Shown here piece after piece: positions 3,918-9,251 of a DNA stretch of 16,951 nucleotides. The number at the start of each line of letters is the position of its first letter. Positions within the stretch are counted from its first letter, which is position 1. The stretch is from the UHGV virus genome UHGV-0280597; one strand, given 5' to 3'. This stretch comes from a virus. The position numbers and the translations under genes were made by a program. The notes below the pieces were generated by a model, which worked only from the letters and a program-made list of their open reading frames with translations, did not search any database and was not told the origin of the DNA.

Positions 3918-4400
3918 TTATTTGATAAGAAGTGAAGGTTTCCCAACTTTGAGTTGAGCACCGGGGATATTTAATCCTGCTTTTAGTTGGTGCTTGATTG
4001 CCAACTTGTCGGCTTTAATTGTCGTTTCAAACTCAACGTATTCAGGAGGAAGGGCGCTTGAGTCGATGATTTCTACAGTTTCTGACGGTTTGCGGATTGT
4101 TACCTGGTGAATACCTGCTCTAATCTTTTTCTTGCCAACCATTTCAAGCGATGAGGCTATATATGCCATAATGCTATCAATCTTATTTTGAATTACTGCT
4201 GCTCGTTCATTCAGTGACTTTGCCTCGTCCTTGAGGCGTTCAGCATAACCAGATTCATTTTTAATAATGGCGAGAAGTTGCTCTATTTTATCGGTAAATT
4301 CTCCTTCCATGCCTTCTATTGTGTCAGCAATCATCTCTGGTTCTAAATCTGAATCCATCAATTTTGCGTATTCATTGGCTATTTCATATAGTTTGCTCAC
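3918..4400 (-). CDS. Siphovirus Gp157-like protein, about 160 aa
   Basis: ORF-track ORF 3918..4406; likely GTG start at 4400 preceded by GGAGGT; N-terminus (V/M)SKLYEIANEY and coiled-coil character resemble the Gp157 family, which often accompanies phage recombinases (recall only). Confidence 0.5.
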   Translation of the reverse strand: MSKLYEIANEYAKLMDSDLEPEMIADTIEGMEGEFTDKIEQLLAIIKNESGYAERLKDEAKSLNERAAVIQNKIDSIMAYIASSLEMVGKKKIRAGIHQVTIRKPSETVEIIDSSALPPEYVEFETTIKADKLAIKHQLKAGLNIPGAQLKVGKPSLLIK

Positions 4401-5286
4401 TGGCAACCTCCAGTTTCGCTTTGCATTCTATGTAAATGGCTTGTACGTTCTGCTGCAATTTCATTCCAGATGTCAGGCGATATGCTTCTGCAAAATATCG
4501 TTTCAAATCATCCATGTTTTCTGCCTGAGCCATTTCATCACAAAGAAGTTGTGCTTTTTCCATTATTTCCTGCTGGCGTTTCCGTTCATCTTCGCGGATA
4601 TCTTCCTCTGATTTGTGCGGCATAACTGGTTCCTGATGCATACCTTCATCTTCGTTAAGCAGGTGAATGGCATTATCCAGTCGCTGGGCTTTAGGCCAGT
4701 ATTTGCTGGCGCGTTTAACTATTGTTTTACGCGCCATCTCTTCCCAGAATGTCTTCCACGGTCCATTCTTTGCCTTGCTCGTTGCTTCCACAGCTTTAAT
4801 TTCTGCCAGACTCATTTCTTCAGTCAGGTAGTCACCATCTGCTGTTTTAACCGTGCAATAACCACCAACAATAGAGCCTCGCTCACCAAATGCGTTGTAT
4901 TTGTGGGTTGGCGCTGAATCAAGGCCGTTTGATTCATAGGTGTCGTTTGAGTACACCAGTTTACATTGCCCCCACTTAATTGATCCTGTCGACTGTGCAA
5001 GGTGAAGTAATCCCATATAGCTGATATCAAGGCAAACCATGCCGTCGCGCGGAACTAGATAAGCAAGTTTGCTGGCCGGGTTTAAGGTGATGCCGATCGC
5101 CGCAACATTGATGATGGCGTTCTGTGCGCTGGTTGGATTTGCCAGTGCCGTTTTAGCCAGGTAATCATTTTTCTGGAAATACTGAATTGCAAACTGGCTT
5201 TCCTTAGCCCATGTCACCGTCTGTTCAGTCAATGCTCCGCAGAATAACTGCTCCTGCTGTTTAACGAATTCAACGATATTGCTCAT
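4384..5286 (-). CDS. recT: RecT-family single-strand annealing recombinase, 300 aa
   Basis: ORF-track ORF; size and sequence resemble RecT/Red-beta-type annealases (recall); occupies the lambda bet position; ATGA overlap with the upstream gene. Confidence 0.8.
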   Translation of the reverse strand: MSNIVEFVKQQEQLFCGALTEQTVTWAKESQFAIQYFQKNDYLAKTALANPTSAQNAIINVAAIGITLNPASKLAYLVPRDGMVCLDISYMGLLHLAQSTGSIKWGQCKLVYSNDTYESNGLDSAPTHKYNAFGERGSIVGGYCTVKTADGDYLTEEMSLAEIKAVEATSKAKNGPWKTFWEEMARKTIVKRASKYWPKAQRLDNAIHLLNEDEGMHQEPVMPHKSEEDIREDERKRQQEIMEKAQLLCDEMAQAENMDDLKRYFAEAYRLTSGMKLQQNVQAIYIECKAKLEVASEQTI

Positions 5287-5675: not shown

Positions 5676-5846
5676 TCATGGGCGGCCTTGTTGTTTCAAA
5701 ATATCCCAAAGCTTTTCGAGCAAACTTTTCATTCTTGGTTGTTTAAAGTCTGCTCCGGTTAGAATGTTTTTTCTTGAATGCTGTACCGATAAAATCGGGT
5801 TGAAAGGGCGAACCGATGCCGCCCCTGCAATAGCGAACTGTTGCAT
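5676..5846 (-). CDS. cIII: CIII-like protein (putative FtsH inhibitor), 56 aa
   Basis: Not in the ORF track (under 60 aa); manual translation MQQFAIAGAASVRPFNPILSVQHSRKNILTGADFKQPRMKSLLEKLWDILKQQGRP; AAGGAG 6 nt upstream of the ATG at 5846; N-terminal MQ-x-AIAG and C-terminal amphipathic L-x-K-L-W-D-I-L-x-Q-x-G-x-P match my recollection of lambda/P22 CIII. Confidence 0.5.
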   Translation of the reverse strand: MQQFAIAGAASVRPFNPILSVQHSRKNILTGADFKQPRMKSLLEKLWDILKQQGRP

Positions 5847-5921
5847 AGGATGCTCCTTCTGTTTGATTGCATAACGAAAACGCCTCGAGTGAAGCGTTAT
5901 TGGTATGCGGTAAAGCCGCGC

Positions 5922-6290
5922 TCAGGCGGCTTTGATAGTCATATCATCTGAATCAAATATTCCAGATGTGTCGATATCGGTAATTCTTATTCCTTCGCTA
6001 CCATCCATTGGAGGCCATCCTTCCTGACCATTTCCATCATTCCAGTCGAACTCACACACAACACCATATGCATTTAAGTCGCTTGAAATTGCTATAAGCA
6101 GAGCATGTTGCGCTAGCATGATTAATACAGCATTTAATACAGAGCCGTGTTTTTTGAGTCTGTATTCAGAGTCTGACCAGAAATTATTAATCTGGTGAAG
6201 TTTTTCCTCTGTCATTACGTCATGGTCGATTTCAATTTCTATTGATGCTTTCCAGTCGTAATCAATGATGTATTTTTTGATGTTTGACAT
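5922..6290 (-). CDS. hypothetical acidic protein, 122 aa
   Basis: ORF-track ORF; start at 6290 just downstream of a strong minus-strand terminator; acidic C-terminal region (DIDTSGIFDSDDMTIKAA). Confidence 0.5.
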   Translation of the reverse strand: MSNIKKYIIDYDWKASIEIEIDHDVMTEEKLHQINNFWSDSEYRLKKHGSVLNAVLIMLAQHALLIAISSDLNAYGVVCEFDWNDGNGQEGWPPMDGSEGIRITDIDTSGIFDSDDMTIKAA

Positions 6291-6310
6291 CTGTTCATAT
6301 CCTCATAGAT

Positions 6311-6338
6311 AAAAAATTGCCCTCACATTGGAGGGCAA
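6311..6338 (-). terminator. intrinsic terminator (leftward)
   Basis: Perfect 8-bp stem TTGCCCTC/GAGGGCAA (6317-6324/6331-6338), 6-nt loop; on the minus strand followed by UUUUUU (plus 6311-6316 AAAAAA). Confidence 0.6.
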
Positions 6339-6485
6339 AGAAGATTTCCAATAATCAGAACAAGTCGGCTCCTGTTTAGTTACGAGCGACATTGCTCCGT
6401 GTATTCACTCGTTGGAATGAATACACAGTGCAGTGTTTATTCTGTTGTTTGTGCCAAAAATAAAGGCCGACTATGCGTCCTGAAA

Positions 6486-6851
6486 TTACTTAACCAATGA
6501 TGCTGCATATTCGATAAGGTAAAGCTTTGGAGCCAACCAAATTTTTAGCCAGTCGAAATAATTGAAGAAAACAACAATAGAAGTAATCGCTATTCCTGAT
6601 GTGAAAAGTATCGATAAAATAACAATATCCGCATCATCTCCTTTATTGCATGCCAAAATCATCAGATAAACACACGCTATAATCACCAATACACAGAGAG
6701 CCTGAATTCCAGCTGATGATACGGCGTGCCACATCAAAAGCTGATGGATGACATCAGGAATCTGTGCCTGGCTAAATGAAACAGCCGCGTCTATTCCATT
6801 GCTGGCTTTTTGCAGTAGTTCTACGAGAATCTTGTTTGCTTGTTCTTCCAT
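6486..6851 (-). CDS. hypothetical integral membrane protein (about 3 predicted TM helices), 121 aa
   Basis: ORF-track ORF; ATG at 6851 preceded by AAGGTG; hydrophobic segments ALCVLVIIACVYLMILA, IVILSILFTSGIAITSIVVFF; flanked by terminator-like hairpins on both sides; located in the sieB/ral neighbourhood next to N. Confidence 0.6.
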   Translation of the reverse strand: MEEQANKILVELLQKASNGIDAAVSFSQAQIPDVIHQLLMWHAVSSAGIQALCVLVIIACVYLMILACNKGDDADIVILSILFTSGIAITSIVVFFNYFDWLKIWLAPKLYLIEYAASLVK

Positions 6852-6890
6852 ATATCACCTTGATTGTAATAAGCATGAAATTATTTACGG

Positions 6891-6922
6891 CTAAAAAATA
6901 AAGGCCACCATCAGGCAGCCTT
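6891..6922 (-). terminator. terminator-like hairpin plus U-run (leftward), candidate tL1
   Basis: Stem AAGGC/GCCTT (6901-6905/6918-6922) with inner CC/GG pairs; on the minus strand followed by UAUUUUUU; overlaps the stop codon of the 83-aa ORF. Confidence 0.35.
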
Positions 6923-7162
6923 GTTGTAAATGTTGCAGGTATCAAGTAAGTAATTAGATGGAGCGCCATAAATTATGAATTCATCGTTTGTCGGGTCCAT
7001 CTCCATCTCTTGGCCTATTGCCATTCTTGCGTCAGTGTCATCAGCGGCGAAGCATAAAACAGCCCACGCACCCATTGTTTTAAAAAGAACTGCAATTGGC
7101 TGTGGTTTTACTGAATTTGCGTTAGCGCGAAAATCACAAATCGCACTTTCATGAAACTCCAT
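6911..7162 (-). CDS. hypothetical acidic protein, 83 aa (first gene downstream of N)
   Basis: ORF-track ORF; position equivalent to ral/early accessory genes of lambdoid phages; no family recognised. Confidence 0.5.
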   Translation of the reverse strand: MEFHESAICDFRANANSVKPQPIAVLFKTMGAWAVLCFAADDTDARMAIGQEMEMDPTNDEFIIYGAPSNYLLDTCNIYNKAA

Positions 7163-7170
7163 ATCTCACC

Positions 7171-7470
7171 TCAAATAAGTGGTTTGCTGCCTAATTTCAT
7201 TTTCTGGCGACCAACACAAGTCACACCCATTTCACTGCGTGGCTTGCGGTAGTAAATACGGTTCTGTTTACTCTCGACTTCTTCTGCCTTCTTGCAGCGA
7301 AGGCTTCCGAGTGATGCTGCTTTATCTGCTCTGACGCAACCAGAGAGCTTTAGCGCAATTTTTCGCGCCAGTCGCTGCTCTTGCATTGCCTGTTCACGTT
7401 GAGCCTGTCTGCGTGCTCTGCGGCGATTTCTGGCGTTATCGTCAGCCAGATATGTAATGACTACTGTCAT
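7171..7470 (-). CDS. N: N-like transcription antitermination protein, 99 aa
   Basis: ORF-track ORF; GGAGG 5 nt upstream of the ATG at 7470; N-terminal arginine-rich motif (NARNRRRARRQAQ); C-terminus RKPRSEMGVTCVGRQKMKLGSKPLI resembles the lambda N C-terminus (recall); nut sites found in both operons. Confidence 0.8.
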   Translation of the reverse strand: MTVVITYLADDNARNRRRARRQAQREQAMQEQRLARKIALKLSGCVRADKAASLGSLRCKKAEEVESKQNRIYYRKPRSEMGVTCVGRQKMKLGSKPLI

Positions 7471-7782
7471 GTTGACCTCCGATGAAACAACTTTGGAATT
7501 TTTTTATTACAAAGTTGTTTCCATCCCCGCCAATTAGACGGGGATGGAAGAGCATTTATGAGCCTTTATGGACTCTGCTCGATCAGTTCTATTTAATTAA
7601 TCTCTCAATTGAATGTAAGTATTCACATAAATCCTCCTACCTCTTGTGCAGCTTTCTTGAATATGGTGGCGGCTGCATAACGCCTATGGAATTGACTTTG
7701 GCGGTGACGCGCCGGGTGCTTATCTTCCGGTTGCCGTCGTGCAGCTGCACTTCACGTCACCCCAAAGCCAACTACTCTTTGG

Positions 7783-7825
7783 TTCCCGCATTTCGGCGGG
7801 ACAATCCCATCAATGTTAAAGAGCC
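7783..7825 (-). promoter_or_regulatory. nutL (boxA-like GGCTCTTTAACA plus boxB hairpin)
   Basis: Minus-strand reading GGCTCTTTAACA-12 nt-TCCCGCCGAAATGCGGGAA; the boxB hairpin is identical to the one at 9479-9497 downstream of cro. Confidence 0.7.
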
Positions 7826-7872
7826 TACCAATCTGTTCCGTTTGGCTACCAGCGTCCTGCTGATGGCTAAAG

Positions 7873-7956
7873 AATACTGTAGGTATTTTATTGTGTAAAT
7901 ACCCAAGGTATTTATTTTGGTGAAATAATGATAAGCAAATGAATACAAAGGATATT
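7873..7956 (-). promoter_or_regulatory. OL operator cluster (three AATAC-N5-GTATT sites) with candidate pL
   Basis: Palindromic sites at 7873-7887 (AATACtgtagGTATT), 7898-7912 (AATACccaagGTATT) and 7942-7956 (AATACaaaggATATT); same motif as OR; candidate leftward -35/-10 (TTTACA-17-TATTCT) overlaps the first two sites. Confidence 0.6.
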
Positions 7957-8042
7957 TATTTTTTCGGTGTCTGCTTGTTCAGTGCTTTTTATGCGGGATA
8001 TGTGAAGTGGATCCCGATAGCTATTGCTGCCGGGATTATGGG

Positions 8043-8411
8043 TTAGTCAGCGAAGGTTAAGACGAGAATTACCTTAATGATGTCTGCTACAACAGACACG
8101 GCCATAGATAAACCAAAGACGATCCAAGCCATAGAGATGTCTTCACTACCATCGTATAGAGTTCCGTAATCACTGGTGTAAGGCGTAAATGTCGCGCCTT
8201 GATACAACAAGTATAAGCTTGATCCATAGAGGATAAATGCAGATATCCCTTGTATTGCTATGATCACTAGAATCATGAAACGAGCTGATCTATGCGCCCA
8301 AGCCTGGCTTATTTTTTCTGATAGAGATTTCGCAATAAAAGCATGCGCTAAGCCGTAAATTGTCGAGATTGCCAACATCCCCAAAAAGCTTGCTATAGCG
8401 GTTCCAACCAT
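8043..8411 (-). CDS. hypothetical small integral membrane protein (about 3 TM helices) in the rexAB slot, about 122 aa
   Basis: ORF-track ORF 8043..8432 (TTG start); more likely ATG at 8411 preceded by AAGGGG; begins 17 nt after the cI stop on the same strand with no intervening terminator seen; strongly hydrophobic segments. Confidence 0.6.
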   Translation of the reverse strand: MVGTAIASFLGMLAISTIYGLAHAFIAKSLSEKISQAWAHRSARFMILVIIAIQGISAFILYGSSLYLLYQGATFTPYTSDYGTLYDGSEDISMAWIVFGLSMAVSVVADIIKVILVLTFAD

Positions 8412-8428
8412 AATCGCCCCTTGCGTGA

Positions 8429-9145
8429 TCAAACCAGCCTTAGTTTTGTCTCAATTGCAACGCCTATAATCTTGCAGTTTCCATTGATTGGCACGAGAGG
8501 CCATGCAGGGTTAAGTCCCTTGAGGTATTTATTTCCGCCGTCGATTATCAGCTTCTTGAATGTTGCTTCGTTAGAGTCAGAAAGTTTTGCTATGACCAAG
8601 CTGCCGTTGATCGCCTCCCTTCCGGTATCGAAAAGAACGAATGTTCCCTCTGGAATGCTTAACCCAACCGGTGCCGTCATTGAATCACCTTCCACTTTAA
8701 GCCAGAACGCATTACCTTGAATATGCGCGTCAGACTCAAGCCAAACATCTATGTCTTTAATGGTGTATGGTTCGCATGCTTCACACCACGAGCCAGCCTG
8801 GATACTGCTTAACACCGGATACCTCTTTCCTGCTCTGTATTCCCCTGCATACCTTACGTTGGCATCGCTCTTAAGGCTTTCTGCCTGTTCTGCAACCTTG
8901 GCAGCAATTGACTGGCTAAAATCAGCAATTGAGACTTGCAACAATCGTGCAAAACCAGATGCAACCTCAACGTTTAGCGCGTTTCTGCCATTAAGATAAT
9001 GCCCTACCGCTCCTTGGGTGATACCCAGTTCATCAGCGATTGAGTATTGGGTTATTCCCAATTCTTTCTTTTTTGACTCATACAAAGCCTTAAGCCGCTT
9101 AGCGTCTTCGAGCTGTTCTGTCGTCAGTGATTTTTTATTTTCCAT
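8429..9145 (-). CDS. cI: CI-like prophage repressor (HTH N-domain plus LexA/S24-type autocleavage C-domain), 238 aa
   Basis: ORF-track ORF; N-terminus MENKKSLTTEQLEDAKRLKALYESKKKELGITQ parallels lambda CI (recall); GDSM serine motif in the C-domain; divergent from cro across a 106-bp operator region; no Shine-Dalgarno before the ATG (leaderless-type start). Confidence 0.9.
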   Translation of the reverse strand: MENKKSLTTEQLEDAKRLKALYESKKKELGITQYSIADELGITQGAVGHYLNGRNALNVEVASGFARLLQVSIADFSQSIAAKVAEQAESLKSDANVRYAGEYRAGKRYPVLSSIQAGSWCEACEPYTIKDIDVWLESDAHIQGNAFWLKVEGDSMTAPVGLSIPEGTFVLFDTGREAINGSLVIAKLSDSNEATFKKLIIDGGNKYLKGLNPAWPLVPINGNCKIIGVAIETKLRLV

Positions 9146-9151
9146 AGCTTA

Positions 9152-9220
9152 ATTCTAATAGCTAAGGTACTTAAACTAAAAATACCCTGAGTATTGATTG
9201 CTTTGAATACCTGTAGTATT
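9152..9220. promoter_or_regulatory. OR operator region (three sites) with pRM/pR
   Basis: Sites 9206-9220 (AATACctgtaGTATT) and 9181-9195 (AATACcctgaGTATT) are perfect; 9157-9171 (AATAGctaagGTACT) is degenerate; spacing 24-25 bp; minus-strand TAGAAT (plus 9152-9157) sits 6 nt upstream of the cI ATG. Confidence 0.65.
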
Positions 9221-9251
9221 CTTTGTTCATGGTTAATAACGGAGAGTGCAT

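Follow-up and report, generated by a model that had tools for sequence, protein, structure and literature searches.

The early-left operon of a lambdoid phage genome carries a predicted homologue of the small RNA PreS and an optional gene for a small membrane protein

Introduction

Phage lambda encodes, between ea10 and ral, an Hfq-dependent small RNA (sRNA) that was first named LPR1 and has since been renamed PreS (bioRxiv 10.1101/2024.10.31.621285). According to the same study, PreS is about 88 nt long, is processed to about 68 nt, and has its 3' end at tL2a, termed 'one of the termination sites'; production is confined to the lytic cycle, with none in lysogens, and PreS activates translation of dnaN, supports phage DNA replication, and is present in 2,537 genomes by the authors' count (bioRxiv 10.1101/2024.10.31.621285). 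Here we compare that locus with its counterpart in 16,951 nucleotides of the virus genome UHGV-0280597 (hereafter the window, numbered from its first letter). An earlier reading of the bare sequence, referred to below as the original prediction, had singled out positions 6311-6925 as a moron-like cassette bracketed by terminators, in which one open reading frame (ORF), here called orf121, encodes a small membrane protein and may be placed under the control of the phage repressor by an operator-like inverted repeat.

In our view the region is likely to belong to the early-left (pL) operon, dependent on N, of a lambdoid phage, with orf121 as an optional gene. This degree of confidence covers the architecture of the locus and the reading of its transcription; the function of orf121 is graded separately below. 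The terminator, the supposed 3' untranslated region (UTR) and the inverted repeat are already explained by the described tL2a/PreS locus of lambda.

Operon architecture

The window covers the early region of a lambdoid phage with HK140, mEpX2 and HK620 among its relatives, and the genes listed below lie on its minus strand. The lambdoid markers are a cI-like repressor, N, an ea10/DUF2528 gene, cIII and RecT, each on that strand, and orf121 occupies a slot in the N-ral-ea10 part of the early-left operon. In the direction of transcription the genes are:

8429-9145, minus strand: cI-like repressor, 238 amino acids (aa), with helix-turn-helix and Peptidase_S24 domains
7171-7470, minus strand: N
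6911-7162, minus strand: orf83, 83 aa, phrog_2471
6486-6851, minus strand: orf121, 121 aa, phrog_3054
5922-6290, minus strand: ea10/DUF2528 gene
5676-5846, minus strand: cIII
4384-5286, minus strand: RecT

Transcription from pL, with its operators at 7872-7957, would pass, in order, through N, orf83, a terminator-like hairpin (T), orf121, a stem-loop at 6397-6428, PreS as far as tL2a, ea10, cIII and the recombination genes.

The PreS locus

The strong terminator that had been placed downstream of orf121 is real, with a stem of 8 pairs (6338->6317) followed by six U residues. The homologous hairpin is annotated as tL2a in the records of Sf6 and O276, and the Sf6 record marks the block as a mosaic 'boundary sequence'. 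When positions 6280-6500 were aligned with related phages, about 150 nt including the terminator and the inverted repeat proved almost invariant in lambda, Stx1 phage, Sf6, HK106, HK633 and N7. The original prediction had assigned these 150 nt to orf121 as its 3' UTR. The conserved stretch exists as described; its assignment to orf121 does not hold, as the block encodes the published sRNA PreS/LPR1. Its two elements are:

6310-6397, minus strand: PreS (LPR1) homologue of about 88 nt, with the seed at about 6345-6363 and the 3' end at tL2a
6309-6338, minus strand: intrinsic terminator tL2a, found by terminator scan, with a GC-rich 8-bp stem and U6; predicted PreS terminator and Hfq-binding 3' end

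The 5' end was taken from the cloning primer P810 of the PreS authors (GAGCAATGTCGCTCGTAACT), which falls on position 6397 of the minus strand. From this end to the U-tail, 88 of 90 nt are identical to lambda, with no gaps. Both differences lie in the terminator hairpin, where one of them adds a base pair. The seed around CUUGUUCUGAUUAUUGGAAAUC does not differ from that of lambda, and this includes the positions mutated in M1 and M2. The position also agrees: the element lies in the pL operon, immediately 5' of ea10, and ends at tL2a. By its sequence, then, 6310-6397 is a homologue of lambda PreS and a predicted Hfq-bound lytic sRNA. The gene upstream of PreS is ral in lambda, whereas it is orf121 in this phage. 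A search of positions 5800-8000 against Rfam 15 (evalue mode) matched no family; PreS is not in Rfam 15.

A diverged PreS-like sequence was observed in Salmonella phage ES18 (locus L019, about 340-520), in which the 5' part and the seed are about 84% identical and the terminator stem and the upstream hairpin differ. Copies of the ES18 type were also found by blastn in epsilon34, SE16, SI5 and SE1Spa, and they could serve a covariation analysis of PreS. Genome contigs were scanned as well for the exact PreS core pattern (L022-L043). The matches were mostly identical to lambda and came from short or roughly 48.5-kb low-coverage contigs, among them contigs assigned to unrelated genera (Shewanella, Pseudomonas, Neobacillus, Oceanobacillus, Bradyrhizobium, Kitasatospora and others); these are likely contamination of the assemblies with lambda DNA. 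The scan, aimed at diverged PreS copies, yielded no further hairpin type. Within PreS itself there is a 29-codon ORF with an ATG start, MSLVTKQEPTCSDYWKSSLPSNVRAIFYL (6303-6392, minus strand), which begins at PreS nucleotide 6 without a Shine-Dalgarno sequence and is probably not translated.

The inverted repeat

The 9-bp inverted repeat described for this region is indeed perfect, GTGTATTCA (6399-6407) and TGAATACAC (6418-6426) being separated by a 10-nt loop. The window holds three distinct loci with perfect 9-bp inverted repeats (loop 3-12), covering 5 overlapping positions, as compared to an average of 0.88 positions in mononucleotide shuffles. As RNA, the repeat extends to a 14-bp stem with a folding free energy (dG) of -18.8 kcal/mol and a z-score of -6.6:

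6397-6428, minus strand: RNA stem-loop including the 9-bp repeat, its 3' foot abutting the first PreS nucleotide

The original prediction had noticed that the arms include GTATTC and GAATAC, and had raised the possibility of repressor-linked control. These hexamers are true half-sites of the operators of this phage, and the window contains GAATAC 16 times where 6.7 occurrences are expected, both of which speak for an additional operator that ties expression of the cassette or of downstream genes to the repressor. The geometry speaks against it. Operators of this phage are 17-bp sequences of the form RAATAC-N5-GTATTY, three of them in the left operator region (OL, 7872-7957) and two in the right operator region (OR, 9180-9221); the pattern has six matches, five of which are those in OL and OR. 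In the repeat (GTATTC-N12-GAATAC) the half-sites stand in inverted order and 12 nt apart rather than 5, and the operator pattern did not detect it even when 2 mismatches were allowed. Moreover, lambda, Stx1 phage, Sf6, HK106 and N7 carry the repeat without a single base changed. The annotated operators of lambda, Stx1 phage and Sf6 differ from one another and from those of this phage (those of Sf6 are of the 434 type), and the immunity region of HK106 differs too.

Other phages have a different sequence at this place. In ES18 the diverged PreS is preceded by an unrelated 8-bp hairpin, AAUGCGGA...UCCGCAUU, and in SW4848 (E. coli) an identical PreS is preceded by another unrelated 8-bp hairpin, AUAGCAGA...UCUGCUAU. 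With half-sites of the wrong geometry, one repeat shared by different immunity types, and replacement by unrelated hairpins, we give the operator explanation almost no credence.

The lambda, ES18 and SW4848 hairpin types all fold stably (z -3.3 to -6.3), and the arms of the latter two end 2 nt before GAGCAAU. Judged from these comparisons, the conserved feature is a stem-loop at the boundary between mRNA and sRNA, not the GTATTC sequence. Based on its position and on conservation of structure without conservation of sequence, the stem-loop may protect the 3' end of the upstream message, help to define the 5' end of PreS, or both. It could instead have no role related to PreS, being a remnant of the tL2 terminator cluster or simply the 3' end of an upstream module. 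Termination sites are known to cluster in the region, and each of the three hairpin types comes with a different upstream module, as this explanation would expect. The stem-loop has no U-run, however, and hence is no intrinsic terminator, and its stem ends within 1-2 nt of the PreS 5' end in all three types. In 933W-like phages (P32), homology begins 5 nt 5' of the hairpin; the mosaic joint therefore leaves hairpin and PreS to travel together. We regard a remnant without function for PreS as unlikely. A boundary stem-loop is the better account: a stable stem-loop always precedes PreS, its sequence can be swapped, and the accessory genes upstream of it vary. This pattern suggests a testable rule for how PreS is cut from, or insulated within, the pL transcript.

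The optional gene and its flanking hairpins

Comparison of related phages for presence or absence of the cassette, which had been proposed as a check, showed that lambda, Stx1 phage and HK106 lack orf121 at this junction. These phages read CCAAAAATAAAGGCC followed directly by ACCATCAGGCAGCC, so that the upstream hairpin is joined directly to the PreS block. In the window, orf121 lies within an insertion/deletion of 438 bp (start to start) that is bounded by a 13-bp direct repeat, AAAAATAAAGGCC. When the 615-bp region was used as query against 5,426 complete E. coli genomes, 2,245 gave a partial match and 43 a match with at least 80% coverage. The repeat copies and the hairpins associated with them are:

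6894-6906: left-hand copy of the 13-bp repeat, from the repeat finder and alignment
6456-6468: right-hand copy in transcript order, from the repeat finder; the minus strand reads GGCCUUUAUUUUU, which makes up the 3' half and the U-run of hairpin T'
6892-6922, minus strand: hairpin T with U-run, which ends orf83 and carries the TGA stop (6911-6913) in its loop
6456-6485, minus strand: hairpin T' behind orf121, with a U-run and a weak stem (dG -6.6, z -0.9)

On the transcribed strand the 13-mer corresponds to a descending hairpin arm plus a U-run, and the insert therefore looks as if terminator-like hairpins had recombined. Recombination at this repeat is the probable route by which the cassette was acquired or lost.

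The upstream hairpin had been correctly identified. Its stem of 9 pairs (6922->6901) is followed by UUUAUUUUUU, with a dG of -13.9 kcal/mol and a z-score of -2.5. Lambda and Stx1 phage, neither of which has orf121, carry the same hairpin behind ral and behind orf b61, respectively; since hairpin T is present with or without the cassette, it belongs to the neighbouring (backbone) module. The hairpin directly downstream of orf121, T', is weak, and the strong terminator beyond it is the backbone tL2a. The picture of a terminator-bracketed cassette thus fails, as both strong hairpins (T and tL2a) are parts of backbone modules.

Two side observations concern these junctions. Although orf83 and lambda ral are unrelated, they share the same final codons (K-A-A-stop), with the TGA in the loop of the same hairpin (6901-6925), which places a mosaic joint inside the 3' end of the coding sequence. 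In SW4848 (L017, about 1596-2080, to be compared with 6398-6455 of the window), two extra small ORFs lie between orf121 and PreS; accessory genes have therefore been inserted repeatedly at the junction just 5' of PreS.

The orf121 protein and its family

The coordinates and length first given for orf121 were correct: it runs on the minus strand from 6851 to 6486, starts with ATG, and encodes 121 aa. Non-coding status by conservation analysis had been named as grounds for rejecting it, and that analysis was run. Relative to HK639 and PhiR46_1, synonymous divergence in the terminal regions is saturated (pS about 0.8) and non-synonymous divergence is low (pN about 0.12-0.19), which indicates selection at the protein level. 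The gene is under purifying selection and is genuine.

The protein had been described as having an amphipathic N-terminus and about three transmembrane (TM) helices. The N-terminus is as described; Kyte-Doolittle hydropathy shows two TM helices, with a peak of 2.8 at about residues 47-67 and one of 2.5 at about 76-96. Residues 99-121, at the C-terminus, do not exceed 1.07 and therefore form an amphipathic helix rather than a third TM helix. The layout begins with a conserved N-terminal helical region of 45 aa; TM1 and TM2 follow, joined by a short acidic loop, and an amphipathic helix of 23 aa, FDWLKIWLAPKLYLIEYAASLVK, likewise conserved, forms the C-terminus. An AlphaFold2 model comprises three helices (2-70, 74-97 and 100-120), with a mean predicted local distance difference test (pLDDT) score of 71 and low-confidence termini; the long N-terminal helix is predicted to run unbroken into TM1. 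The protein is predicted to be a two-pass inner-membrane hairpin that leaves both conserved terminal helices on one side of the membrane.

Over its full length orf121 matched phrog_3054 (E 2.5e-46; residues 1-121 against profile positions 1-137 of 137). No significant match was obtained in Pfam, NCBIfam or PADLOC; the best PADLOC matches, to generic 2TM or membrane models, had non-significant E values of 0.011-0.065. Pfam searches with 35 members of phrog_3054 returned scattered chance matches to membrane families, and no holin. The phrog_3054 profile found no solved structure among PDB sequences (best E 0.69), and Foldseek recovered family members alone from BFVD and nothing below E 1.5 from PDB. 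A literature search on phrog_3054 and Sf6 gp34 found no publication on an orf121-type protein.

The family is large. A word-indexed search returned 572 homologues of orf121, a profile search (E<=0.001, 1.84 billion representative proteins) returned 4,503 clusters, and tblastn located the family in 178 phage records. Besides temperate phages, phrog_3054 occurs in virulent N4-like (FSL SP-076), phi92-like and Vibrio phages, in Pseudomonas phage Bjorn, and in a Ralstonia jumbo phage. The last of these, the 344-kb RsoM2USA (MG752970.1), has matches to the family at three places, which suggests a paralogue expansion. In the lambdoid, N4-like, phi92-like and Vibrio phages examined, the gene takes early or accessory positions. 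In Pectobacterium prophages, as in HF4s, the homologue follows N; in Salmonella phage 118970_sal4 it adjoins a gene annotated sieB; in PhiR46_1 it stands between Rz and Nu1, a classic late moron slot. No partner gene co-occurred with the family across the phage types examined.

Alignments of phrog_3054 have near-invariant termini around two poorly conserved TM helices. This holds across phages of Escherichia, Pectobacterium, Vibrio, Pseudomonas and Ralstonia; F26 and A107-P108-K109 are invariant even across distant phages, and the loop between the TM helices ranges from 8 to 74 residues. The family motifs are all carried by orf121: an N-terminal G-I-D-x-A-V-x-F ... Q-I-P-D-V-x-x-Q-L-L-x-W, the two TM helices, and a C-terminal W-L-K-I-W-x-A-P-K-L-Y-L-x-E-Y. 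Longer alleles of the gene are found in Sf6, CUS-3 and HF4s. Phage HK633 (JQ086377, 27913-28278) has an intact homologue of 121 codons, in place of which its record annotates a 59-aa ORF, HK633_044; this annotation looks like an error.

Expression of orf121

Translation of orf121 can be assigned to a ribosome-binding site of its own:

6855-6861, minus strand: Shine-Dalgarno (SD) sequence AAGGTGA, 3 nt 5' of the orf121 ATG, read directly

A sigma-70 consensus scan of positions 6852-6925, from hairpin T to the ATG, found no promoter; such a scan leaves room for weak promoters. When the upstream regions of orf121 carriers were aligned (HK633 was left out), the only shared element was SD-like GGTGA/GAGG. 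The HF4s gene begins 8 nt behind N, homology in Salmonella phages stops 10 nt 5' of the ATG, and in HK639 and the Pectobacterium prophages unrelated leaders precede the homologue. The simplest reading is that orf121 is an N-dependent delayed-early gene of the pL operon that uses its own ribosome-binding site; its product would be made once N lets RNA polymerase pass hairpin T.

Several points weigh against the overall account given here. The 5' end of PreS rests on a cloning primer and a northern-blot size, not on mapped ends. Three is a small number of hairpin types in front of PreS, and any of these hairpins could simply be where an upstream module of its own ends. Hairpin T' behind orf121 is weak, and the passage of orf121 transcripts into PreS is a prediction. 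The charge bias of the protein is contradictory: lysine and arginine residues at the loop side of TM1 favour a cytoplasmic loop, whereas the short, acidic loop favours a periplasmic one. Finally, a -10-like TACAAT without a -35 element lies 7 nt 5' of the SD sequence, and a promoter-like site lies within orf83 (6999->6972). This latter site was considered as the driver of orf121 and was set aside because hairpin T intervenes.

The term moron-like, used in the original prediction, is apt in so far as orf121 is a presence/absence cassette with a membrane protein. The bracketing terminators and the possible link to the repressor, the other parts of that description, were not borne out. Taken in full, the moron model gives orf121 a promoter and terminators of its own, has it expressed in the prophage state, and assigns it the exclusion of superinfecting phages. 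It is favoured by the optional presence of a small membrane protein gene in an accessory part of the pL operon, by the annotated sieB next to the homologue in 118970_sal4, by the late moron slot in PhiR46_1, and by the TACAAT in front of the SD sequence. Against it, no sigma-70-type promoter was found, no upstream region is conserved among carriers (the HF4s gene so close behind N is a case in point), and both strong hairpins come from the backbone. The family is frequent in strictly virulent phages and its function is therefore not specific to prophages. The protein is unrelated to SieB and has no significant PADLOC match. Moreover, PreS, which lies directly downstream, is silent in lambda lysogens, and this argues against constitutive transcription through the slot, at least in lambda. 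We consider the autonomous moron quite unlikely and retain the delayed-early pL gene.

What orf121 might do

Our tentative guess is that a conserved function of the host or of entry is the target of orf121, which would act on it early and at the inner membrane, in the manner of superinfection exclusion or membrane protection. The guess is prompted by predicted expression among the earliest genes, by the variety of injection machines and hosts with which the family is associated, and by conserved extramembrane helices on one side of the membrane. A role in anti-defence or host takeover is, at low confidence, nearly as likely, and a holin-like role less so.

As a host-takeover or anti-defence factor, orf121 would bind through its termini to a conserved protein of the host inner membrane, for instance a protease, a transporter or the membrane effector of a defence system, and block its activity. 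Host-directed genes occupy the same part of the early operon (ral in N7 and Sf6, kil and cIII here), termini almost invariant across several host genera fit a conserved target, and the three places matched in RsoM2USA can be counted in favour. On the other side, the protein has no homology to any known anti-defence or inhibitor family, and no partner gene accompanies it from one phage type to the next. This role, too, is doubtful when taken by itself.

The holin-like alternative, which includes antiholins and viroporins, proposes that the protein oligomerises and alters permeability or the timing of lysis. Small size, two TM helices, a predicted N-terminal helix continuous with TM1, the weak and non-significant PADLOC matches to 2TM effectors, and the location of the PhiR46_1 homologue near lysis genes are what such a protein might present. 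In nearly all phages examined, however, the gene lies in early operons and not beside an endolysin, Pfam gave no holin match, and the C-terminus lacks the high charge that is typical of holin tails. We judge this role decidedly improbable.

A wider proposal joins the two halves of the locus and is offered as speculation that we would not ourselves rate as likely. The phrog_3054 family would be a pan-proteobacterial class of early inner-membrane proteins whose invariant helices engage a host membrane function while the hypervariable loop diversifies under conflict, making it a new kind of exclusion or anti-defence factor; in lambdoid phages the gene would at the same time serve as an interchangeable PreS parent mRNA, with the stem-loop balancing the two products. 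The family being large, shared by temperate and virulent phages, and spread over several bacterial orders, a single exclusion, toxicity or interaction experiment would annotate many genes.

Neighbouring features

Three further observations were made upstream, between the repressor gene and N. The first concerns a membrane ORF:

8043-8432, minus strand: small membrane ORF, phrog_6534, about 122-129 aa, with several hydrophobic segments

It overlaps the stop of the repressor gene by 4 nt and occupies the slot of lambda rexAB and Sf6 gene 38. Co-transcription with the repressor gene is probable, which makes this ORF a stronger candidate than orf121 for a membrane protein of the lysogen. Second, the leader between pL/OL and the start of N (7471-7640, minus strand) is very strongly structured (z -6.4), with hairpins at 7522-7548 and about 7480-7515 and a perfect 9-10-bp inverted repeat, CCATCCCCG/CGGGGATGG; it may represent the nutL region or a regulatory structure of the N leader. 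Third, a plus-strand ORF of 138 aa (7482-7898) overlaps the pL/nutL leader and part of OL. Its PHROG match (phrog_6589) spans 20 residues, and it is probably not a gene.

Comparison with known systems

CpxQ and SroC are 3'UTR-derived, Hfq-dependent sRNAs of enterobacteria. Like sRNAs of this kind, PreS lies at the end of an mRNA, with one intrinsic terminator serving both, and shorter processed forms exist in lambda. It differs from them in that the parent gene is interchangeable (ral, orf121 or others) and in that a strong stem-loop marks the boundary between mRNA and sRNA.

For orf121, the lambdoid morons (lambda bor and lom, HK97 gp15) offer a partial likeness, as they also are optional genes for small membrane proteins, absent at the same junction in close relatives. 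Unlike them, orf121 has no detected promoter of its own, its strong flanking hairpins derive from the backbone, and its family extends to virulent phages. SieB of lambda and P22 is likewise a small inner-membrane protein from among the earliest genes, and sieB lies beside orf121 in some Salmonella phages; the two nevertheless share no sequence relationship, and orf121 has no match to a defence family. In hhalign comparisons, orf121 showed no relationship to the lambda protein annotated SieB (probability 0.2%) or to lambda Ral. T4 Imm, a small early superinfection-immunity membrane protein with two TM helices, resembles orf121 by description.

The closest likeness is to the phrog_3054 relatives themselves. 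Sf6 gp34, HK639 gp44, phi92 gp220 and the HF4s 'TM helix-containing protein' have the same architecture as orf121, and Sf6 gene 34 occupies the same slot, between ral/N and tL2a. Within this group orf121 is a short allele of 121 aa with an 8-aa loop, as compared to 140-150 aa and loops of roughly 30-40 aa in the others; relative to the Sf6 allele, the central third cannot be aligned and the ends are about 80-83% identical at the DNA level. It is an additional member of a catalogued family.

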